A stretch of 64,000 nt of DNA from Acutalibacteraceae bacterium (GCA_045605025.1 JAZUPE010000017.1:1867-65866); one strand, 5' to 3'; shown: positions 10,251 through 64,000, counted from the stretch's first letter. Translations and numbers: made by a program. Notes: a model not told the origin generated them from the sequence alone.

Positions 10251-11312
10251 ATGAAGAAAATCCTCGCAATCGTACTCGCAATGCTCATGCTGTTCTCTTG
10301 CGTAGCATGTGCCGGCGCAAAGGTCGATCCCGACAAGCTGGTCGGCGTTTCCATGCCCACCAAGGATCTGCAGCGCTGGATCCAGGACGGCGCCAACATG
10401 AAGGATCAGCTCGAAAAAGCTGGTTATTCCGTTGACCTCCAGTATGCAGGCAACGACATCGCTACTCAGGTTTCTCAGCTCGAAAACATGATCGCCAACG
10501 GCTGTAAGGTTCTGGTTATCTCCGCTATCGACGGCGAATCTCTCGGCACCGTTCTGGCCAAGGCCAAGGAAGCCAAGATTCCCGTTATCGCTTATGACCG
10601 TCTGATCATGAACTCTGACGCTGTTTCCTACTATGCCACTTTCGACAACTGGCTGGTTGGCGTCAAGCAGGGCGAGTATCTCCGCGACAAGCTGGATCTC
10701 GACAATGCTGCCGGTCCCTTCAACATTGAGTTCATCACCGGTGACCCCGGCGACAACAACATCAACTTCTTCTTCGACGGTGCTATGAGCATCCTGCAGC
10801 CCTATCTGGATAGCGGCAAGCTGGTTTGCCCCTCCGGCCAGACTGAGAAGTCCGTCGTTGCTACTGCTAACTGGGCTTCCGATGCTGCTCAGGCTCGTTT
10901 CGAGAACATCCTCGGCACCTACTATGCTGATGGCACCAAGCTGGATGCTGTTATGGCTTCCAACGACTCCACCGCTCTGGGCGTTGCCAACGCTCTCGAG
11001 TCCTCCTACAGCGGCGGCAACACCGTCCTCCTCACCGGTCAGGACTGCGACATCGCTTCCGTTAAGAACATGATCGCCGGCAAGCAGAGCATGTCCATCT
11101 TCAAGGACACCCGTACTCTGGCTGCCAAGACCGTCGAGATGGTCGACGCTCTGATGAAGGGCACCGAGCCTCCCGTAAATGACACCGAGACTTACGACAA
11201 CGGCACTGGTATCATCCCCAGCTTCCTTTGCGAGCCGGTCTTCGCTGACATCAACAATTACGAAGAGCTCCTCATCAAGTCCGGTTACTACACTGCTGAT
11301 CAGCTCAAGTAA
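10251..11312 (+). CDS. sugar ABC transporter substrate-binding lipoprotein (CUT2, ChvE/multiple-sugar-binding type)
   Basis: Lipobox 'FSCVAC'. 'VGVSMPTKDLQRWIQDG...IPVIAYDRLI' is typical of ChvE/XylF-like periplasmic binding proteins. Confidence 0.9.
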   Translation: MKKILAIVLAMLMLFSCVACAGAKVDPDKLVGVSMPTKDLQRWIQDGANMKDQLEKAGYSVDLQYAGNDIATQVSQLENMIANGCKVLVISAIDGESLGTVLAKAKEAKIPVIAYDRLIMNSDAVSYYATFDNWLVGVKQGEYLRDKLDLDNAAGPFNIEFITGDPGDNNINFFFDGAMSILQPYLDSGKLVCPSGQTEKSVVATANWASDAAQARFENILGTYYADGTKLDAVMASNDSTALGVANALESSYSGGNTVLLTGQDCDIASVKNMIAGKQSMSIFKDTRTLAAKTVEMVDALMKGTEPPVNDTETYDNGTGIIPSFLCEPVFADINNYEELLIKSGYYTADQLK

Positions 11313-11365
11313 TCTTACCCAAGGCAACCTAACTATACAATTTCAGTATAGCTTAACTTAAAGGG

Positions 11366-47580: not shown

Positions 47581-47976
47581 TCAGCCGCGCTCAAAGCGCA
47601 CCTGCCGGAAAGCTCGCAGGTCATTGACCTCGCCTGTGTCGTAAAAGTGCAGGAAGATATCCGAGCACTCCTGAGCGGAGCACAGCTTTTCCACCAGCCG
47701 GACGTACTTCTTTTTTTCGATGGCGAGCTGAACGTCTACGATGCCGTGACATTCACACGCCTGCACATATCGGATACCATGGGTGGCGACCGGCAGTGTC
47801 AGTATCACATAAAAGTCGGGATCCTCTGTTATCCTGCGGATACAGTCGAGGATATCCTCCTGACCGAAGCTGTCGGACACGCCCACCGGTGTCTCAAGGG
47901 TGATCCATTGCCCCGGCGGGTCTTTTTCGAATTTTACGGTTCCGGTTTTTCTGAATAATCCGTCAAAAATGCCCAT
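47581..47976 (-). CDS. hypothetical protein (131 aa)
   Basis: Start trimmed to MGIFDGLF (GGGGGAA upstream) to remove the overlap with ylmH. No recognisable motif. Confidence 0.45.
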   Translation of the reverse strand: MGIFDGLFRKTGTVKFEKDPPGQWITLETPVGVSDSFGQEDILDCIRRITEDPDFYVILTLPVATHGIRYVQACECHGIVDVQLAIEKKKYVRLVEKLCSAQECSDIFLHFYDTGEVNDLRAFRQVRFERG

Positions 47977-48034
47977 TGTACGTTCCCCCGTTAAAATATT
48001 ACACCCGCATAATGAGTACGGAATGGCTGACTGT

Positions 48035-48787
48035 CTATTTCGGGATCTCCACGGCAACATAAAGCCGTCCCTTTTTTGTTTCCCTGCGTGCGCCGAGATA
48101 GGTGAAGCGTCCGCACCGGCGCACCGAGACCACGTCTCCCTCGCTGAGCGGGCGGGAGGAATGTTCGGTTATGCGGGAGTTGACATACACCCGCTGGGCA
48201 TCAAAGAGCTGCTGACACTGGGTGCGGGACAGTTTGTATACCGCGCATATCACCGCGTCGATGCGCTCTGAGGGCACGTTGAACTCGTGCTGTTCGGTCT
48301 CGACGGTCAGTGTCTGCGGCGCGTCTTCCGCCATACGGCACACCACAGTGGTGTGCTTTACCCTCTCAAGCGAATCAATGATATACTGAGCGATGGAATC
48401 AAGGCAGAAGAGATACGCGCCCTCCTCGCGCACGAAGATATCGCCCAGCACCTCTCGGCGTATGCCGAGATTGAGCAGCGCGCCGAGAAAATCACGGTGT
48501 TCCAGCTTGTCGGCGAATTTCGCGTTTTTGGGGGAGATACATACGCAGCAGACAGGCGGTTGAGCCTGATAGCCGCAGAAGTCTTCCGAACCGAACATGG
48601 CTATTCTGCGCTCGCAGGAAGGATGTCCGCCCTCAAGAGAGAAAGGAGAGGGGATATCGTGGGCACAGGCCATCAGAACGCTCTGCTCCGCCATGGAAAG
48701 AAACTCGGTGCTGCTCCATATGCCGTTGTACGCCCGCTGACCCAGTTCGGAAAAACGTCTGCGCAACAGTTCGTCTGAACCGTTCAC
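48035..48787 (-). CDS. ylmH: YlmH-family S4-domain RNA-binding protein
   Basis: 'LLRRRFSELGQRAYNG...TEFLSMAEQ' and the C-terminal S4 segment 'RIDAVICAVYKLSRTQCQQLFDAQRVYVN'. GTG start 7 nt after AAGGAGG. Confidence 0.75.
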   Translation of the reverse strand: MNGSDELLRRRFSELGQRAYNGIWSSTEFLSMAEQSVLMACAHDIPSPFSLEGGHPSCERRIAMFGSEDFCGYQAQPPVCCVCISPKNAKFADKLEHRDFLGALLNLGIRREVLGDIFVREEGAYLFCLDSIAQYIIDSLERVKHTTVVCRMAEDAPQTLTVETEQHEFNVPSERIDAVICAVYKLSRTQCQQLFDAQRVYVNSRITEHSSRPLSEGDVVSVRRCGRFTYLGARRETKKGRLYVAVEIPK

Positions 48788-48900: not shown

Positions 48901-48929
48901 TTGACTATAATGGACGATTGTGGTATGAT
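48901..48929 (+). promoter_or_regulatory. promoter of the RyR-domain gene pair
   Basis: TTGACT-17 nt-(TGg)TATGAT, 36 nt upstream of the GTG start. Confidence 0.5.
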
Positions 48930-48964
48930 ATGTCCACAAATTCAGTGATTTGTGAGGTGAGCTT

Positions 48965-51151
48965 GTGAATAATGATATGAAGCGAAGCGGCGAACCGAAG
49001 ATCAGACCCAACAGCAACGGGTATGTTCCGGCTCCGCTGGATACCTCTGAGATTATACTTGGTGACAAGATAATGCTGCTTGGCGAGCGGCTTGCAGCCA
49101 ATTTCCATGATGTCTGGGGAAAGAAACGTGTTGAGGAGGGCTGGGCGTACGGTCCGGTTCGTGACGACGAAAAAAAGACCAACCCCTGCATGGTGTATTA
49201 TGACGAGCTGACAGAGGAAGAAAAGCAGGACGACCGGTCTTCTGCTTTCGAAGCGCTCAAGTTCATCAAAGCTCAGGGTTACAGAATTGAAGAACGAAAA
49301 AAGCCGAGCATGAAGGAGATTTTACGCACAGCGTGGATCGATCGTGGCCGCAGTATGGATGAAATCTGCTTTGACGCTCCGGTGTTTGTAGGTGTTTTCG
49401 GCACGGTAGATCTGCCGGATAAATCCACTCTGACCAAGGCGCTGCATTCTTTCTGCAAGTCGCTGTATGAGCTTTTTGAACAGAAGAAGGCCCTTGGCAG
49501 AGAGAACGGCAGCGCTCTTCTCAACAGCAGCCGCTACAAAAAGCACGCGCACACACGCTTTGCGTTCCTGTCCGCGCTTGAAACGGAAACCGAATGCCTT
49601 GCGGCCCGTGTGGCAGCCGGTTACGGTATAGAGACCTACCGCGTGACGGGCGATTCCGCTCTGGCGGAAAAGGGTGATCTTGTTGCGCCGGACGGAGACG
49701 TTACAGGCTTTATCTGTGATTACAGCCTGATGGCTCTCGCGATGTGGAACGGCGTTGACGCTGTCTCTTCCGGATATGACGAGCGTATGGCTCTCGCCGT
49801 AAAGCGCGCTCTCAGAGGCAGCACCGAGCGGCTCATGGAGCTGGATATGCCGGACAATATCACTGTATATCACATGCTCATGCCGCTGGACAACAGAGAC
49901 AAGGGTGTGGAAGGACACGCAGCATATGGTATCCGCACGCTGCATCCCTATCCACTGGAAACCGGTAAATCCTGGTATTTCCGTGGTGGAAAGAGTAAGG
50001 TAGGCGTGACCGATAAATATAATCAGAACCGATTTGAGCGCAATGTGGGCAAGATCGCCCACTTCAATTACAAGGTGAAGATTCGCCATGATGAAGTGAT
50101 GGCGAGCGAGAAGGTTTATGACCTGATGCCAGGTCTGCATGGTCACGCGGATGCTGATCGCGATCTGCTGCGTTATCTGTATACAGACAACATATCTTTC
50201 GCGGCGCAGAAAAGGCGTGACATACAGACACGCAGAATGATCACTGCGGCGGCAATCGGTCTGATTACCTACAGCTTTGTTTCTGACGCTCCGGAGAAGT
50301 TGTTCGGCATAGACATGGGCGCACTTGCACCTTTCCTGAGCATATTTACTCTTGTTTTCCTGACTGCGGCGATGGTTATTTTTCTGCTTCAGCGCAGGGC
50401 GGGAAGTCACGATGAGTATGTCGGTTTCCGTCTGATCGCGGAGTGCCTGCGCGTGCAGACCTACTGGAGGGCTGCCGGTGTTGAAGGCAGTGTGGAAGAT
50501 GAATTCGGCGCAAAGTCCAAGCTTGACTTTGAATGGGCCCGTTACATTCTCCGTTCATGGGAACTGCAGAACAGAATATACAACACTGAAAATACGAAAT
50601 TTCCTTCCGGAGTTATCAATGAAGTCGGCAGAATCTGGCACGGAACCGAGGAGATCTGGCAGGAAAACACTGAAAACGCTGAGCAGAGCGGATATAACTA
50701 CATCAACAGTGACGGTGTCGACCAGTACGGCTACACCCGCCAGAAGGCAGAGAGCTGCTCGAGAGATGCCCGCCGCGAAGGTCTTGTCAACGTGATATCC
50801 ATCGCTGCGGCATACGGTCTGACCATCGTTGTGGCAGTGCTGATTATCATCAACGCCTTTGGCAACGGCAAACTGGAAATCACAGATCACCTGATGTTGC
50901 TGGCAAGTCTTGTACAGATCGGTGTTGCTGGCTACAGTCTCTTTGCGGCAAGCAAGGATTACGAGCGTGTGGCGAATAATAATACCTGGTTGTGCATAGA
51001 GTATCAGAAGGCTATCATTGCCTGCAAATACACAGCGAATGAGAAGAAGAAACGCGAGCTGTTCAGACGCACCGGCTGTGAAGCAATCAGAGAGGTTTGC
51101 GGCTGGGCGCTGGAATTCAGCCGTAACGAGCCGGGATCACCCATAAGTTAA
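48965..51151 (+). CDS. RyR-repeat / Rossmann-like (SLOG-like?) / double 2-TM membrane protein (728 aa), function unknown
   Basis: aa 17-108 form a RyR repeat ('NGYVPAPLDTS', 'FHDVWGKKRVEEGWAYGPVRDDEKKTNPCMV', 'GYRIE'). aa ~136-300 show an alternating beta/alpha pattern. TM pairs at aa 425-476 and 606-662. GAGGTGA SD before the GTG start. Confidence 0.85.
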   Translation: MNNDMKRSGEPKIRPNSNGYVPAPLDTSEIILGDKIMLLGERLAANFHDVWGKKRVEEGWAYGPVRDDEKKTNPCMVYYDELTEEEKQDDRSSAFEALKFIKAQGYRIEERKKPSMKEILRTAWIDRGRSMDEICFDAPVFVGVFGTVDLPDKSTLTKALHSFCKSLYELFEQKKALGRENGSALLNSSRYKKHAHTRFAFLSALETETECLAARVAAGYGIETYRVTGDSALAEKGDLVAPDGDVTGFICDYSLMALAMWNGVDAVSSGYDERMALAVKRALRGSTERLMELDMPDNITVYHMLMPLDNRDKGVEGHAAYGIRTLHPYPLETGKSWYFRGGKSKVGVTDKYNQNRFERNVGKIAHFNYKVKIRHDEVMASEKVYDLMPGLHGHADADRDLLRYLYTDNISFAAQKRRDIQTRRMITAAAIGLITYSFVSDAPEKLFGIDMGALAPFLSIFTLVFLTAAMVIFLLQRRAGSHDEYVGFRLIAECLRVQTYWRAAGVEGSVEDEFGAKSKLDFEWARYILRSWELQNRIYNTENTKFPSGVINEVGRIWHGTEEIWQENTENAEQSGYNYINSDGVDQYGYTRQKAESCSRDARREGLVNVISIAAAYGLTIVVAVLIIINAFGNGKLEITDHLMLLASLVQIGVAGYSLFAASKDYERVANNNTWLCIEYQKAIIACKYTANEKKKRELFRRTGCEAIREVCGWALEFSRNEPGSPIS

Positions 51152-51185
51152 AAAAGTATAGATAGTTAATTGAGGAGGAACTGAA

Positions 51186-51479
51186 ATGAGCGAGTTTGTC
51201 ATCTATAATCCTGCTCCGGAAGATACCAGCAGGATCGAGCTGTCTCCGGAGATTCTCGCACTGTGCGAGGAAATGGCGAAGAACACCCATGAGGTCTGGG
51301 CAAAGAACCGCATGGATCAGGGATGGACTTACGGCCCTACCCGCAACGACGAAAAGAAGGAGCATCCATGTCTGGTGCCCTATGAGGCGCTTCCCGAGAA
51401 GGAGAAGCAGTATGACCGAGATACTGCAATGGAAACCCTTAGACTTATCATTAAGCTTGGGTACGAAATCAAAAAGTAA
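51186..51479 (+). CDS. stand-alone RyR-repeat protein (97 aa)
   Basis: 'YNPAPEDTS...THEVWAKNRMDQGWTYGPTRNDEKKEHPCLVPYEALPEKEKQYDR...GYEIKK'. GAGGAGG SD. Starts 34 nt after the upstream stop. Confidence 0.85.
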   Translation: MSEFVIYNPAPEDTSRIELSPEILALCEEMAKNTHEVWAKNRMDQGWTYGPTRNDEKKEHPCLVPYEALPEKEKQYDRDTAMETLRLIIKLGYEIKK

Positions 51480-51500
51480 CAAACATTACGCATCATCACA

Positions 51501-51535
51501 ACGCCGCCCCGACCGTTTTTCGGTCGGGGCGGCGT
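51501..51535 (+). terminator. perfect 15-bp GC-rich hairpin closing the RyR pair (no U-tract)
   Basis: ACGCCGCCCCGACCG-TTTTT-CGGTCGGGGCGGCGT. Not followed by a T-run on either strand. Confidence 0.5.
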
Positions 51536-52299: not shown

Positions 52300-52506
52300 T
52301 CAGTTCAGTGCTGTCGCATCAATGTATATTGCTCCTTTGGGCAATCGTATCGTCATAAGCAGCAGCAAAACCGCAAAGCAGTACAGAACTGCAAAAATCT
52401 TGAAACATGGGCGGATGTGATCTGCGGTGCAGATCAGAAATGCGCCAATAGGAGGAAGAAGAAGGAGCAGCAGAAGATACTGCGGTAAAGTCAGCTTACG
52501 GTTCAA
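52300..52506 (-). CDS. small hydrophobic protein (68 aa, 2 predicted TM), hypothetical
   Basis: TTG start 9 nt after AGGAGG. Two hydrophobic stretches. Convergent with the DUF45 gene. Confidence 0.4.
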   Translation of the reverse strand: MNRKLTLPQYLLLLLLLPPIGAFLICTADHIRPCFKIFAVLYCFAVLLLLMTIRLPKGAIYIDATALN

Positions 52507-59057: not shown

Positions 59058-62000
59058 GTGAAGATCAGAAGTGAACTGAAAAGGATCAGGGAATGGATAA
59101 CAAAAGAGGGCAGAGGAAGAAAAGCGCTGCTTGTGGCGCTGTCTGTACTGCTGTCGCTCAATGTCATGCTGTCTGCCATGCCGCGTTCCGCGCTCGCATT
59201 TGACGGCGCGGTAAGTAATATGAACGAACTGCTTGACGCGGCTATGTATGGCTACGACGAGATAATCATCGATTCCAGTTTTGAAATAAACGAGACAGTC
59301 AGGATTAATAACAGTGCTATTCTTCGTCCTGCTTTTGAGGATGTGACTCTCACGCGTGCTGCAGGCTTCAAGGGCGCGCTTTTTGAGGTTTACGGCAGAA
59401 TTCTTTCGGACGACGAATTTGCACCTTATGTTTCGCTCTCTATCGGTGATGGAATAACCATTGACGGCAACAGCACTGCTGTTACAGCCGAAGCTCCGCT
59501 GGTGGAACTCAGCGGCGGTGAGCTTATTGTCTGCGGCGAACTTGTCAACAACAAAAACGGCGCGGCGGGTTCCGAGGGCGGCGCGGTAAAGGTTTGGCGC
59601 GGAAGACTCATCGTTGACGGCGGTCGCATTGCCGGAAACAGCGCGTATATCGGCGGTGGTATCTATGTCGAGGCTGGCGCTGTGCGGATTACCGACGGTG
59701 TTATTGAGAAAAACACCGCTTCCTACACCGGCGGCGGTGCCTGTATCAAAGATTGCGTCTCAGTGGCGATTTCCGGTGTGAACGCAAATAATGCATATCA
59801 GAACTCCACGGTAATTACCGGCAACAAGGCTCCCATAGGTGCCGGTGTCTATCTGAGCAATGTCCGTACCGACGGCGTAACCTATACCGTAAAGGGCGGC
59901 GTATATATCGACGACAATTTCATCGACAGTTCTTCCGCTGCTGCCATGCCCGGTACCGAGTGTAATCTCCTTGTTGAGAGCAGGTATGCGGTTCCTTCCT
60001 TCTCCGGACTTACCGGAAAGGCTGCCGTCGGATTCTATCCTATGCAAAACATGCAGATTCCCTGCGAGCTGGACTACTTCAAGCAGGGAAGACTGTTCTA
60101 TGATAATGATGTTCTGGACATCAACGGCAAGGAAATCCTTATCAACAATACCACCTACGCTTCCGGTATTGCCAATCTGAACGTAACCTCCACGAAGAAT
60201 GCTCTGGGAGAATATGACGGCGGTACTGTTCTTTCCGACATGGGTCAGGAGGTTAACTCGGTAAATAATCCGTCCGTTACGCTGGGATTCCCCGTGCATC
60301 TGATTGTGAACACCGAAGATAAATACACTCTTAAAGAGGGTTCCTTCAAAGTTACTACCGGAAGCGGAGATCTGCTGGCTCAGGGTTCTCCGAGCAACGG
60401 CGTATGGTACACATTTAACGGCGGTTCGGAGACCGTCAAGGCTGAGTTTGTAAAGGATGCCGTTCCGGTCGCTAAGGTCAACGGGGTCAATTACGCTACT
60501 CTTGCCGAAGCCTTTAAGGCATGTGAAGGAAAGCCGCAGGCACAGGTCGACCTGATAAAGGATCTGAAGATTGATTCCACCAGCAATCTGAATTACTGCC
60601 TGAGAGAATGTGTCGCGGTTCCGGAGGGCACAGTGATAACCCTCAGCGCGAAGGGCGACGGCAATGAGATCAGACGCGACAACAACTGGACTGGTTCACT
60701 CTTTGAAGTTCCGGCTCGCGCCAAACTCATTCTCGAGAATATTATTGTCGACGGAAACAAGAACGTAACGGGTGCGGAACCAGTTGCCGATGTATCCGGC
60801 GAACTGGTGCTGAATAATTCGAGCATCAAAGATGCGAACGGTATTGACGGCGGCGCGGTATACCTTGATAACGGCGCGCTTACCTTCAAAAACAAAGGCG
60901 TTATCGAATACAACACCGCAGTCAACGGTGCCGGCGTTTATATGACCGGTAGTGAAGCTGTGATTACCGGAAATATTTGCGAGGACTACAGTTCCGCCAA
61001 CTATGGAAATCCCGATCGCACCAACTGGGAGTTCAGATACAACACTTTCTCCGGCTGCGGCGGTGCTGTTTATATGGAGAACGGTACCGTAAAGGATTGT
61101 GAGATCGTAGCCAACAGCCCTGCTGCCGGCGCTGCCGACACTATGGGCGGCGGCATTTATGTCGAAAGCGGCAAGGTTATCAATACCGTTGTCGGTGCCG
61201 TTGAGGGTGAAGGTACCAGCTTCAGCAACAGCGCCCACACCGGCGGCGGTATCTACGCCGAAAGGCTGGCGATGAAGAACGTTTCCGTCACCAACAACTC
61301 TGCGACGGATATGGCGGGCGGCGTTTTCTGCGAGGACGAGCTGGTTGTTGCCGGCAGAATTGTTGTCGACAAGAACCAGGTTTCGAGTGCAGCCAGCAAC
61401 CTCTATCTGGATGTTGAACAGCTCACTCCGATCCGCGTAAACGGACAGCTTGACAGCAGTTCCGTGATCAAGCTCAATCTTTCCGAGACAGGCAACTCCG
61501 TTAACGGAACGGTTGTTGCCCACAGCGATTCTGTGCCGTTAAACGCTTCCAACGCGCAGAAGTTTGTGATCGAGAACGCTCCCCAGAGAGTGATCCGCGC
61601 CAACGACCGAAACGTGATTATCGATTCTGCCGCTGATTGCGTCAGTGTAACCATCAAAGCAAAGGATAATTCCGGTACGGTTACCGCTTCTCCGGAATTT
61701 GACAGCGTCGTCAGCATTCCGCTGGATGGCGGAAGGGCGCTGCTGGAGATCAGTAATCCTGATAGACTTGATGTGAAGGTTTCTCCTTCGGACGCAAACG
61801 CGATTTCTGTTCAGGAGACCTCTGATTATAATGGCGGATACGGTGTAAGCTATTACTATATTGATGTTCTGAAAGGCGCGTCCTCTGGCGGAAAGTATAC
61901 CGTGGAGGTCAGCGCGAGCTATGATTATCTGCGGCGTTCGCTCATGGAGTATGTCAATATTGACGAAGCCGGTAAGTTGATGATGGCTACAAATGAATAC

Positions 62001-64000
62001 GCCGGAAGTAATTATCCTTCTGCCGAAATTATTTATTCCACTGAAAAAGTAAACCCCTACGCGTCTCTCAATGCAAAGTATTATGTATGGGGTTCCGCGG
62101 AAAGTGATGATTCGGTAAAGAATCAGCTTAACAGCGTGAAGGAAGACCGAGTGAATGATTCTTACGCAGGTTATTTCCGCGCTGAACCTGTAATTACAAT
62201 ACCTTCCGTGGACAATGCTCCCGCGCTCGGTCCGATCGATGAGTCTCCGATTGTCACTATTACTCTGGATGTTACCGACTTCGCCGAAAACGGAGATTAC
62301 ATTGATGTAGCGTCCTACAACGCCATGATGAACGGAAACACTCCTGCGGGTGCCAGACTTCACAAGGATCTGCTTGTCAGAAACGGCTACGTGAGCTTTG
62401 ATGTTGCCAGAGGCACCGGAGCCAATCCGGACGTGGTCTACGCTGCCGTCGTGCGGCACAATGATTACGCCGCGTCCATCGGAACCGACAAGTATCATAC
62501 CCTCGCCGACGCGTTCGCCGCCGCGACTACCGGTGCAGAGATCAAGGTGCTCAGAGATGTAATCACCCGCTCCGCGCTTGTGGTTCCCTCCGGCAAGGCG
62601 ATCACCGTCAGCGCTGAAAACGGCGCACGTATTACCCGTTCGGAATTCTACAATGGCGCGATCTTCTTTGTCAGCTCCGGCGGTGAGCTTACGCTCAAGA
62701 ATATCGTGGTCGATGGCGGAGCGGAGATCGGTTCCGGCTCCTCGCTGACCAATACAGGCAATGATGCTTATGCGGCTATTGTCGCAAATCACGGCAAACT
62801 TTCCGTCAGCGGCAGTAGCGGATTTGAAAACGGCTTTATCGCTGACGATTACGGAAACAGCAGCGCGGACCGCAGCGGCGGTGCGCTGTATAACGGAGTG
62901 TCCGGTAACGCCACAATCAAAGACGCGTACTTTGACGGTAACTATGCCTATTTCGGCGGCGCGATCAACAACTCAGGCGATCTCAAGCTGGAAGGCTGCG
63001 AGATCACCGGCAATTACGCCGGTTCCGAGGGCGGCGCGATTTATTCCACCGGTAATCTCGGTCTTACCAATACCTCGGTCGCGTATAACAAATGCTCCTC
63101 CAAGGAAGCGGGCGGTATCTACAGCGCCGGCAAGCTGCTTATTGCGGGAGATGTGAACGCGGCATCCAACACCAACGGTCTGGGCGCTCTGAGCAATGTC
63201 CATAATTACAGCGATTCCCCGATCATTATCGCTGACGCGCTGTCCGACAGCTCCCGCATCGGTATCAGCAAGCCGGACAAGAGCGGCGATGTCATCGCCA
63301 AGGGTGACGGCACCAAGATCACCGATGCTACGACCTATAAGAACAGATTCTTCCCTGATGCCGGTTCGCTGGCGGTTACCGCTGACACCACCAACAAGAC
63401 TGTTGTGTTCGGTAGCACCAATGCCACCTACGTGACCGTGTCGCTCTCTTCGGGAAGCAACGGCACCATTTCTCCCGTGGGTGACGTAAAGGTCGCTTCG
63501 GGCGAGAGCCTCAAGATCACCGTTACTCCCACCGGGTCCTACGCGGTTGCGGATATCACCGTGGACGGCACAAGCGTTCTGTCGAGCGCGACGGTTGACG
63601 CAACATCCGGTGTTGCTACCTACACGCTGAGCAACATCACCGCCAACAAGAAGGTTGACGCTTCCTTCAAACGCACTCCCGGATCTGTCCTCACTTCCAC
63701 CGCATCTGCCAACGGTACCATCAGTCCTTCCGGAAAGGTCAACGTCAACAGCGAGGATACGGTCAAGTACACCATCACTCCCAGCGAGGGATACTATCTT
63801 GACTCTCTCAAGCTGACCGGCAAGGATGTGCTTGACGACGCTGTTCGCAACAAGGACGGTTCCTACACCTACGTTGCTTCCGGAATTACCGATGCCGACG
63901 CTACTCTCAACGCGGATTTCAAACCTATCTATGCGCCGAGAACACTCGTTGACACCGCTTCCGGCGTCGAGGTCACCGGCTCCCTGCACTACAAGGCAAA
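59058..64000 (+). CDS. very large secreted beta-helix (Pmp-repeat-like) surface protein, 3' end outside window (more than 1647 codons)
   Basis: My manual translation from GTG 59058 (AGGAGG 8 nt upstream) stays open to the window edge. Signal peptide 'ALLVALSVLLSLNVMLSAMPRSALA/FDG'. Repeated 'GGAIY/GGGIY/GGAVY' beta-helix rungs in three modules. C-terminal InlB-B-like repeats. Absent from the supplied ORF track. Confidence 0.85.
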   Translation, partial: MKIRSELKRIREWITKEGRGRKALLVALSVLLSLNVMLSAMPRSALAFDGAVSNMNELLDAAMYGYDEIIIDSSFEINETVRINNSAILRPAFEDVTLTRAAGFKGALFEVYGRILSDDEFAPYVSLSIGDGITIDGNSTAVTAEAPLVELSGGELIVCGELVNNKNGAAGSEGGAVKVWRGRLIVDGGRIAGNSAYIGGGIYVEAGAVRITDGVIEKNTASYTGGGACIKDCVSVAISGVNANNAYQNSTVITGNKAPIGAGVYLSNVRTDGVTYTVKGGVYIDDNFIDSSSAAAMPGTECNLLVESRYAVPSFSGLTGKAAVGFYPMQNMQIPCELDYFKQGRLFYDNDVLDINGKEILINNTTYASGIANLNVTSTKNALGEYDGGTVLSDMGQEVNSVNNPSVTLGFPVHLIVNTEDKYTLKEGSFKVTTGSGDLLAQGSPSNGVWYTFNGGSETVKAEFVKDAVPVAKVNGVNYATLAEAFKACEGKPQAQVDLIKDLKIDSTSNLNYCLRECVAVPEGTVITLSAKGDGNEIRRDNNWTGSLFEVPARAKLILENIIVDGNKNVTGAEPVADVSGELVLNNSSIKDANGIDGGAVYLDNGALTFKNKGVIEYNTAVNGAGVYMTGSEAVITGNICEDYSSANYGNPDRTNWEFRYNTFSGCGGAVYMENGTVKDCEIVANSPAAGAADTMGGGIYVESGKVINTVVGAVEGEGTSFSNSAHTGGGIYAERLAMKNVSVTNNSATDMAGGVFCEDELVVAGRIVVDKNQVSSAASNLYLDVEQLTPIRVNGQLDSSSVIKLNLSETGNSVNGTVVAHSDSVPLNASNAQKFVIENAPQRVIRANDRNVIIDSAADCVSVTIKAKDNSGTVTASPEFDSVVSIPLDGGRALLEISNPDRLDVKVSPSDANAISVQETSDYNGGYGVSYYYIDVLKGASSGGKYTVEVSASYDYLRRSLMEYVNIDEAGKLMMATNEYAGSNYPSAEIIYSTEKVNPYASLNAKYYVWGSAESDDSVKNQLNSVKEDRVNDSYAGYFRAEPVITIPSVDNAPALGPIDESPIVTITLDVTDFAENGDYIDVASYNAMMNGNTPAGARLHKDLLVRNGYVSFDVARGTGANPDVVYAAVVRHNDYAASIGTDKYHTLADAFAAATTGAEIKVLRDVITRSALVVPSGKAITVSAENGARITRSEFYNGAIFFVSSGGELTLKNIVVDGGAEIGSGSSLTNTGNDAYAAIVANHGKLSVSGSSGFENGFIADDYGNSSADRSGGALYNGVSGNATIKDAYFDGNYAYFGGAINNSGDLKLEGCEITGNYAGSEGGAIYSTGNLGLTNTSVAYNKCSSKEAGGIYSAGKLLIAGDVNAASNTNGLGALSNVHNYSDSPIIIADALSDSSRIGISKPDKSGDVIAKGDGTKITDATTYKNRFFPDAGSLAVTADTTNKTVVFGSTNATYVTVSLSSGSNGTISPVGDVKVASGESLKITVTPTGSYAVADITVDGTSVLSSATVDATSGVATYTLSNITANKKVDASFKRTPGSVLTSTASANGTISPSGKVNVNSEDTVKYTITPSEGYYLDSLKLTGKDVLDDAVRNKDGSYTYVASGITDADATLNADFKPIYAPRTLVDTASGVEVTGSLHYKA
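63427..63927 (+). repeat. two tandem repeats of about 83 aa (InlB B-repeat-like Ig/beta domains) within the giant ORF
   Basis: 'SNGTISPVGDVKVASGESLKITVTPTGSYAVADITVDG' vs 'ANGTISPSGKVNVNSEDTVKYTITPSEGYYLDSLKLTG'. Both end in '..A(S/D)FK'. Confidence 0.5.

Follow-up and report, generated by a model that had tools for sequence, protein, structure and literature searches.

What does a bacterium use a ryanodine receptor repeat for, and why would it keep two of them side by side? The question is raised by a pair of genes in a 64,000-nt stretch of DNA from an Acutalibacteraceae bacterium (GCA_045605025.1 JAZUPE010000017.1:1867-65866; here, the window). The large gene encodes a 728-aa protein with an N-terminal RyR repeat (also called R12), and the small gene encodes a 97-aa protein that is a free RyR repeat. 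The original prediction, made from the sequence of the window, described the pair as a candidate defense or conflict module, perhaps on an acquired islet, with a SLOG-like nucleotide sensor and two membrane modules of two transmembrane (TM) helices each. We favor a related reading, tentatively and with slightly less than even confidence: the pair would encode a nucleotide-gated SLATT membrane effector, derived from a Thoeris effector, with the fused and free R12 domains as its sensor. For the effector module, the best-supported reading is that it faces the cytoplasm and comes from a widespread family with a SLOG domain and four TM helices (SLOG + 4TM), found elsewhere beside TIR signal synthases.

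Both proteins contain a RyR repeat, as had been proposed. Pfam scored PF02026 at 100.7 bits in the large protein (aa 20-109) and at 126.6 bits in the small one (aa 7-97), against a gathering score of 27.4, and phmmer searches of the PDB matched the repeats of RyR1-3 and the Bacteroides 3NRT protein with E-values down to 1e-70. NCBIfam and PADLOC found no further domain in either protein, save a faint RTasSLATT match described below.

The fused and the free repeat occur together. A search of 5.8 billion proteins retrieved only ten full-length relatives of the large protein, with 50-72% identity, all from Oscillospiraceae/Acutalibacteraceae metagenome-assembled genomes (MAGs) and all with the RyR repeat. 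Together with four distant RyR-fused proteins (loci L006, L007, L008, and L010), whose cores are only 22-25% identical, the close-clade loci (the window, L001-L005, and L012) make up 11 distinct RyR-fused loci, and a free RyR gene was found 3' of the large gene in all 11. The gap between the two genes was 11-36 nt in the other loci where it could be read. No RyR open reading frame (ORF) was found within +/-10 kb in any of the 19 RyR-less loci. These counts support the predicted link to a free RyR gene.

Published R12 proteins form dimers through helices alpha1/alpha4, and they either cleave 3'cADPR, 2'cADPR, and cyclic ADP-ribose (cADPR) or bind them, with affinities from the nanomolar to the sub-micromolar range (PMC13232231; 10.64898/2026.06.04.730250). 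In RyDEP, H75 and D117 are the catalytic dyad of an inverting glycosidase, while W78 makes a stacking contact with the adenine and H100 reaches the phosphates. Of the eight homologues tested, six bind the signals, and the two characterized in detail are nanomolar sponges (PMC13232231). The gp68 protein of Pectobacterium phage CB1 ('RyR Tad') also dimerizes via alpha1/alpha4. It binds 3'cADPR with a dissociation constant of 43 nM, as well as 2'cADPR and cADPR, using residues H129/W132, K147/H154, and K170/D171 (10.64898/2026.06.04.730250). Both 2026 phage studies remark on the similarity to animal ryanodine receptors and leave the function of cellular bacterial R12 open.

The free protein of the window has the PF02026 fold and the H/W/(K/R)/H/D residues of these phage proteins at identical spacing. 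Residues H129, W132, K147, H154, and D171 of gp68 align with H35, W38, R53, H60, and D77, the 'EKKEHPC..PY..LP' stretch between the ligand residues is near-identical, and identity is ~46% over the ligand core. The free copy keeps H-W-R-H-Y-D at positions 0, +3, +18, +25, +41, and +42 in nine of the 11 loci and H/W/H/D (0, +3, +25, +42) in ten. The fused copy keeps H and W in all of them, with Asn at +25 in ten and His in none, and with D, N, or A at +42. Thus, the H/W/H/D pocket defined by RyDEP and RyR-Tad is complete in the free RyR and partial in the fused one. The settings also differ: RyDEP (DyoEdafos) and RyR-Tad are phage-encoded counter-defense proteins, whereas the R12 domains of the window are chromosomal and vertically inherited, and one is fused to a membrane effector.

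At +25, the free copies have His and the fused ones Asn, a division that is paralleled by Repeat1 and Repeat2 of the animal ryanodine receptor. The free RyR, which is ~50% identical to Repeat1 of animal RyR2, resembles Repeat1 (His at +25; 83 bits, versus 65 bits to Repeat2), and the fused RyR scores equally against both repeats, shares Asn at +25 with Repeat2, and has the 'SNGY-PAPLD' lead-in in common with it. This resemblance hints that the animal tandem R12 may mirror a two-polypeptide bacterial unit. In both cases an R12 unit is placed on a membrane permeability device (conceptually, also MHR1/2 of TRPM2). However, the animal device is a six-TM cation channel, unrelated to the SLATT hairpins found here, and its repeats are in tandem, whereas the bacterial unit would join two polypeptides. 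Another uncharacterized cellular R12 architecture was seen in a 776-aa protein (P0011), with two C-terminal RyR repeats (aa ~486-772) after a ~480-aa N-terminal region without a Pfam match.

We favor a heterodimer of the two copies because R12 is always a two-repeat unit, because the free gene was never found without a fused RyR, and because the copies are complementary in the way of animal Repeat1 and Repeat2. The same residues could serve a different arrangement, with the same effector logic and the fused RyR as the sensor, in which the free RyR is a soluble negative regulator, either a host sponge or a RyDEP-like glycosidase. It would remove a basal cADPR-type signal and so set an activation threshold and a reset, like the ring nucleases of type III CRISPR systems. 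The free RyR has the full RyDEP catalytic and binding set (10/11 loci), in RyDEP that set includes the dyad of an inverting glycosidase, its homologues are nanomolar sponges (PMC13232231), and a fused copy without His at +25, and often without Asp at +42, fits a sensor that does not destroy its signal. We consider this arrangement rather unlikely: a diffusible eraser would be equally useful to the RyR-less TIR-linked relatives, yet none of the RyR-less loci had one nearby, the strict fused/free coupling and the short spacing argue for a stoichiometric partnership, and all characterized R12 units are two-repeat dimers.

For the rest of the large protein (aa 112-728, RyR removed), an AlphaFold2 model built from a 91-sequence alignment reached a pLDDT of 93.6 and a pTM of 0.92. 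A full-length model from a 10-sequence alignment had a pLDDT of 53 and was not used. The modeled core presents, in order, a five-stranded alpha/beta domain, a small beta/helical linker, and two hairpin modules. In the first module, a very long helix leads into TM1, followed by TM2 and an amphipathic helix; the second has the same layout plus C-terminal helices. The alternating strand/helix domain (aa ~135-310) and the two TM pairs that had been noticed by eye were therefore recovered by both the model and hydropathy.

The likeness of the central domain to SLOG, also first noticed by eye, was supported by structural searches with Foldseek. The sole credible match in the PDB was the type-I LOG 5zbl_A (probability 0.99, 132 columns), and among predicted viral structures (BFVD) the core matched, with probability 1.0, YAcAr/DUF2493 'cpYpsA-related SLOG' proteins, mycobacteriophage D29 gp61, and one DprA-like protein, with SLATT proteins further down the list. 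E-values were only 0.03-0.2, since the query was the whole 617-aa core. A TrkA_N fold, which had been left as an option, was discarded: no such matches appeared, and the fold matches were of SLOG type. Foldseek on the TM region gave only ABC-transporter and GPCR helix noise, and the family profile found no meaningful match among PDB sequences. The window protein had no Pfam or NCBIfam match to SLOG models, and its only match to SLATT profiles was PADLOC RTasSLATT (E = 0.065, aa 593-670).

Model and hydropathy place the four hydrophobic helices at aa ~425-445, 453-476, 606-630, and 642-662, with TM1 the least hydrophobic. They form two hairpins with external loops of 8-10 residues and K/R-rich cytoplasmic flanks, and the K/R distribution and hydropathy fit an N-in/C-in topology. 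The amphipathic helix after TM2 contains the invariant R489, E493, and R496 ('FRLIAECLRVQTYW'), and the C-terminal helices of module 2 contain the invariant E710 and W714 and a terminal 'EP..P'. In the linker, P217 is near-invariant across the 91 sequences and N257 is invariant (core numbering). An internal duplication of the TM modules was considered and rejected, with an hhalign probability of only 15% between modules 1 and 2.

To place the core in a wider family, its RyR-less profile was searched against 1.84 billion representatives, and it retrieved 1,103 proteins at E <= 1e-3 and 164 at E <= 1e-10. Among the best 150, ~100 were colinear with nearly the whole core; they are typically 550-680 aa long and have no RyR. 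We examined 74 relatives with domain models. For SLATT-type models, Pfam matched DUF4231 in 26 (2.3e-7), SLATT_1 in 13 (7e-7), SLATT_3 in seven, and SLATT_5 in two, and NCBIfam matched SLATT_3 in 20 and SLATT_1 in 14 (6.4e-9). For SLOG-type models, Pfam matched YAcAr in seven (best 1.9e-4), DprA in one (5e-5), and YpsA in one. PADLOC ShosA matched one relative. DUF4231 and SLATT matches landed on the first or on the second hairpin depending on the member: DUF4231 was sub-threshold on module 1 in P0005, P0007, P0012, P0025, and P0033, relatives matched DUF4231, SLATT_1, and SLATT_5 on module 2, and the close homologues reached up to 20.7 bits for DUF4231 on either module (gathering score, 24.7). 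From the two tandem SLATT/DUF4231-like modules of the original prediction, the SLATT-like nature was supported by these relatives, while the modules showed no detectable repeat of each other.

At the fold or superfamily level, and as modeled, the central domain is of SLOG type and the two TM modules are SLATT-like; the membership of the window protein in both is transitive, through its relatives and its fold. In public records the proteins of the family are named 'hypothetical', with one UniRef entry named 'SMODS and SLOG-associating 2TM effector domain-containing protein'. Fusions of SLOG and SLATT were reportedly predicted by Burroughs et al. in 2015, and the outline of the canonical family is already known or, at a minimum, predicted.

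Does the SLOG domain still sense a nucleotide, as originally proposed? The consensus of the wider family contains the motifs 'IGVTGHRD', 'LLSxLAEGADRL', and 'LIALWDGxxxxxxGGTxxxV', whose GHR, GAD, and GGT we take to line the ligand pocket, by analogy with DprA and LOG. In the window protein they are replaced by VFGTVD, LETETE, and SGYDE (MWNG..SGYDE). The triad is intact in ~57 of the 91 aligned relatives, absent in every RyR-fused member, and also missing from a group of RyR-less proteins nearest to the RyR-fused ones. Canonical nucleotide sensing by this SLOG domain appears unlikely because all three motifs conserved in the canonical branch are lost, which goes against that part of the proposal. 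Given this loss and the 2026 work on phage R12, the RyR/R12 domains seem the better candidate sensor. SLOG motifs were degenerate too in L014 and L015, two RyR-less loci from Clostridia MAGs with no TIR neighbor detected.

On the reading that we favor, the branch would have kept the SLOG fold and lost its pocket motifs, gained an N-terminal R12, and always co-transcribed a free R12. The fused and free R12 would heterodimerize via alpha1/alpha4, as in characterized R12 units, with the free subunit giving a complete pocket (H/W/H/D) for an ADP-ribose-derived nucleotide and the fused subunit a modified one (H/W/N). An ADP-ribose (ADPR)-derived signal, such as a cADPR isomer or a related adenine nucleotide, would alter the dimer, and the change would be relayed via the SLOG scaffold to the SLATT hairpins. 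These would oligomerize or open and permeabilize the membrane, leading to growth arrest or death of the abortive-infection type. As candidates for a latch, we point to R489/E493/R496, which follow TM2, and to E710/W714, close to the C-terminus. The heterodimerization, the identity of the ligand, the membrane permeabilization, and the immune role are what we infer here.

The tie to immune signaling comes from the genomic neighbors of the relatives. TIR_2/ThsB_TIR genes (740-840 aa) are adjacent upstream and on the same strand in five RyR-less loci (L016, L017, L018, L024, and L026), and a 342-aa TIR_2 gene is adjacent downstream on the same strand in two others (L030 and L032). By our count, about eight of the 19 RyR-less loci have a TIR gene beside the core gene, and a ninth (L029) has a DUF4062-STAND gene on the same strand. 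Among RyR-fused loci, L006 has a TIR_2-DUF6273 gene directly upstream. The conflict-system ancestry put forward in the original prediction gains plausibility from the TIR genes that flank RyR-less relatives. The canonical family has diverse partners of the TIR type, which suggests that several distinct sensor modules feed one SLOG-4TM effector. One of them, at 6346-8862 of L016, is a TIR + TPR protein of ~840 aa, and another, at 3122-4750 of L029, is a DUF4062 + AAA_16/NACHT STAND protein.

How does the pair compare with known systems? A recent survey lists an untyped 'SLOG and 4TM' Thoeris candidate from Streptomyces and Nitrospira in its Table S2 (bioRxiv 10.64898/2025.12.03.692087). From the architecture label alone, we infer that the canonical branch is of this type: both have a SLOG-fold cytoplasmic domain and then four TM helices as two SLATT-like hairpins, and the RyR-less relatives of the window protein stand directly beside TIR_2/ThsB_TIR genes. 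The window branch differs in its N-terminal R12, its obligatory free R12 partner, its loss of GHR/GAD/GGT, and the lack of an adjacent TIR in 10 of 11 loci. ThsH of type VII Thoeris, a SLATT protein, has been validated as cADPR-activated (bioRxiv 10.64898/2025.12.03.692087). Compared by description, it is likewise a membrane effector of SLATT type that responds to an ADPR-derived signal made by a TIR protein, and it is predicted to oligomerize into a membrane-spanning assembly. However, its annotation names SLATT alone, its ligand pockets are predicted to lie where SLATT protomers meet, and it has no SLOG, R12, or free R12 partner. ThsA (type I, SIR2-SLOG) and the SLOG effectors of types III and IX also couple a SLOG fold to an effector in TIR signaling, whereas the effector of the window is made of SLATT membrane hairpins instead of SIR2 and its SLOG lacks the pocket motifs. 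In the literature searched, no paper contained both 'SLATT' and 'RyR', and the R12-fused, R12-partnered, SLOG-degenerate branch was not found.

Phages carry R12 proteins as well, in 274 phage records, and this opens a further explanation. The unit could be a guard or decoy against phage anti-Thoeris R12 proteins (RyDEP, RyR-Tad): the phage R12 would displace an antitoxin-like cap, the free RyR, and release the SLATT effector. It agrees with R12 dimerization via a conserved interface, with how widespread phage R12 is, with the identity of the free RyR to gp68, and with the missing TIR of its own in 10 of the 11 loci. We find it quite improbable nonetheless, as cross-dimerization is without direct evidence and a mere cap would not need conserved ligand-binding residues. 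Besides, viral-contig scans, including IMG/VR, with the core family and the free RyR returned no relatives, so no phage RyR from the host clade was found.

Apart from those scans, one record from human feces deserves mention. L035 (MT837259.1, 'UNVERIFIED Bacteriophage sp.'), a putative phage contig of 12 kb, has no core-family gene but carries a lone RyR gene of 100 aa at 11052-11351, whose product is 61% identical to the free RyR of the window. This product may be an R12 sponge of a gut phage and a close relative of the partner protein in the host.

Is the pair an acquired islet? In all five contexts retrieved, ylmH (with trmO and DUF3737 behind it) and the large gene are divergently oriented, and the large gene is followed by an RyR gene of 94-102 aa. 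The site beside YlmH-TrmO is the same in 6/6 other close-clade loci (L001-L005 and L012). Relative to the window, the flanking housekeeping proteins are 76-96% identical, the large protein 50-72%, and the small one 65-82%. The large gene had a dN/dS ratio of 0.12-0.17 and the small one of 0.10-0.18, compared with 0.06-0.12 for ylmH and trmO; all are rough values, given that dS is saturated. The GC content of the pair is 0.515 and that of its immediate flanks 0.57-0.60, so the lower GC first noted holds locally; against the whole window (mean 0.533, standard deviation 0.027 in 2.6-kb windows), it does not, and the pair is at an unremarkable 24th percentile. No integrase, transposase, or defense system was found near the pair. 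Synteny, ordinary GC, purifying selection, and the lack of mobile or defense neighbors speak against an acquired or mobile islet, and we rejected that reading. The pair is a vertically inherited and selectively maintained locus of a narrow clade, not a recent arrival.

Such conservation also suits a function outside immunity. The pair could encode a physiological membrane channel or regulator, gated by adenine nucleotides or NAD metabolites via the R12 pair, exapted from a defense effector, and fixed in an Oscillospiraceae/Acutalibacteraceae clade. In its favor are the shared ylmH-trmO site in relatives with such divergent large proteins, dN/dS near that of the housekeeping neighbors, ordinary GC, a window without TIR, defense, or mobile genes, and the loss of the canonical SLOG signal-binding motifs. 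Moreover, animal R12 binds the adenine nucleotides ATP/ADP (PMC12627627). We nevertheless regard this function as unlikely. The only role known or predicted for SLATT modules is that of toxic membrane effectors in conflict systems, the RyR-type L006 still has a TIR gene directly upstream, and the large protein evolves faster than its neighbors (50-72% identity, versus 76-91%). The family is also patchy, unlike a housekeeping gene, with only three close loci among 185,579 species representatives in a search with a 13-sequence alignment. A metagenome scan with YlmH for presence or absence of the pair returned only relatives with 32-41% identity. As for the outcome that the original prediction had set against itself, a conserved locus with a housekeeping phenotype, the part on the conserved locus was borne out.

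A decaying, non-functional remnant of a defense system, kept by chance, has a very slim chance of being the answer. It could account for the degenerate SLOG motifs and for the large gene of L003 (7731-9847, a JGI metagenome), which is split into 511 + 193 aa with an intact free RyR downstream; a frameshift, pseudogenization, or faulty assembly could each explain the split. Against this stand intact ORFs in 10 of the 11 loci, down to ~22% identity, purifying selection at a rough dN/dS of ~0.10-0.18, residues R489, E493, R496, E710, and W714 invariant across the family, and the conserved operon structure and terminator.

Several observations weigh against the nucleotide-gated effector that we favor. 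The locus is vertically conserved among housekeeping genes, outside any defense island. An adjacent TIR gene was found in only one of the 11 RyR-type loci (L006). In the 64-kb window, jackhmmer with four TIR seeds and PADLOC on its 51 proteins found no TIR, and PADLOC found no ThsB, CD-NTase, other signal synthase, or defense system. The TIR-domain synthase (ThsB) expected in a Thoeris operon was therefore not found in this one. PADLOC does not recognize the family, and none of the SLOG or SLATT matches of the window protein itself rises above threshold. Two 'SLOG and 4TM' candidates that were tested showed no detectable defense in E. coli (bioRxiv 10.64898/2025.12.03.692087). At the level of the sensor, the fused RyR could homodimerize instead of pairing with the free one, and conserved residues do not tell a binder from an enzyme, since the phage homologues that share them are mostly sponges.

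At the level of the operon, both ORFs, their spacing, and the GTG start are present as first described, with the 97-aa ORF preceded by the Shine-Dalgarno sequence GAGGAGG and starting 34 nt 3' of the 728-aa ORF. The promoter candidate, which stands as a consensus match with an extended -10, sits in the divergent intergenic region common to ylmH and the large gene. The hairpin that closes the unit was also confirmed: its 15-bp stem is perfect, with a TTTTT loop and z = -7.15 against shuffles, and a strong equivalent lies 3' of the free RyR gene in 10/10 related loci. The coordinates are collected in Table 1.

Table 1. Features of the two-gene unit, in positions of the window
Feature	Position	Strand	Basis or remark
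Sigma-70-like promoter candidate, TTGACT-17-TATGAT, extended -10 TG	48901..48929	+	Consensus match only, 10/12 positions
Large gene, 728 aa: RyR/R12, degenerate SLOG, linker, two SLATT-like 2-TM modules	48965..51151	+	GTG start
Fused RyR/R12, aa ~17-110; H48 and W51 kept, +25 = N73, +42 = D90	49013..49294	+	PF02026 5.4e-29
SLOG-fold Rossmannoid domain, aa ~135-310, motifs degenerate	49367..49894	+	Foldseek, motif alignment
Conserved linker, aa ~311-394: 'HPYPLE.G.SW', 'HFN' (family-wide), long helix	49895..50146	+	Alignment, predicted structure
2-TM module 1, aa ~395-540: long helix, TM1, TM2, amphipathic helix	50147..50584	+	Hydropathy, DUF4231 sub-threshold in relatives
Variable cytoplasmic insert separating the TM modules, aa ~541-586	50585..50722	+	Length variation in alignments
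2-TM module 2, aa ~587-728: long helix, TM3, TM4, C-terminal helices	50723..51148	+	Hydropathy, SLATT-type matches in relatives
Free RyR/R12 protein, 97 aa; H35, W38, R53, H60, D77	51186..51479	+	Pfam 4.6e-37
Terminator-like hairpin, 15-bp stem, without U-tail, closes the unit	51501..51535	+	-36.1 kcal/mol

Beyond the hairpin, two genes accompany the pair in five of the seven close-clade loci, the window included: a YgjP-like/SprT-like zincin gene (PF01863; 51554-52297, + strand) and a convergent 68-aa ORF (52300-52506, - strand). They have the lowest local GC (0.496 and 0.464, respectively). We considered them as parts of the module and rejected them: neither occurs in L002 or in any of the distant RyR-type loci, and a hairpin always lies between them and the pair.

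On the other side, a 159-aa ORF without a Pfam match (47581-48060, - strand) lies between trmO and ylmH and is kept, with 54-75% identity, in L001 and L004. L002 and L003 instead carry a DUF7021/DUF2262 gene on the opposite flank of ylmH, inserted where ylmH faces the RyR gene, which indicates local gene turnover beside the pair. The other genes of the window have ordinary gut-anaerobe functions (GH3, GH9, FeoB, GGDEF, Suf, M18 aminopeptidase, and CoaE). PADLOC gave isolated single-protein matches to mad1, mad3, mad8, AbiLi, AriA, ATPase-Toprim, and GlgB-like, which probably reflect generic ATPase or enzyme domains rather than a system. At the end of the window, an ORF of >1,647 aa (59058-63998, + strand) without a Pfam match at E <= 1e-5 runs off the edge; by position only, it corresponds to a called 1,842-aa gene in the syntenic L001, with no Pfam match on record.

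Finally, the locus gives a concrete and testable host-side context for R12, on the effector side of ADPR signaling. If R12 is the sensor, it would be a new signal-receptor domain in bacterial immune signaling, and the pair would be a small, tractable model of a cADPR-type signal acting directly on R12 to control membrane permeability. The most specific form of this idea, which we consider doubtful, is that R12 is a host-side sensor of ADP-ribose-derived immune signals, where a Repeat2-like fused copy and a Repeat1-like free copy would form a heterodimer gating SLATT and the ancestral SLOG would be retired. If true, no cellular permeability device gated by R12 would have been described before outside animals, and the R12 module of RyR channels would have a plausible forerunner in prokaryotes; the unit would also mark the pool from which phages drew the RyDEP and RyR-Tad sponges. 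Should the free subunit prove catalytic, Thoeris-type signals would have their first eraser encoded by a host. And if the pair is instead a physiological channel that works independently of TIR, it would clearly exemplify the exaptation of a defense effector into core physiology.

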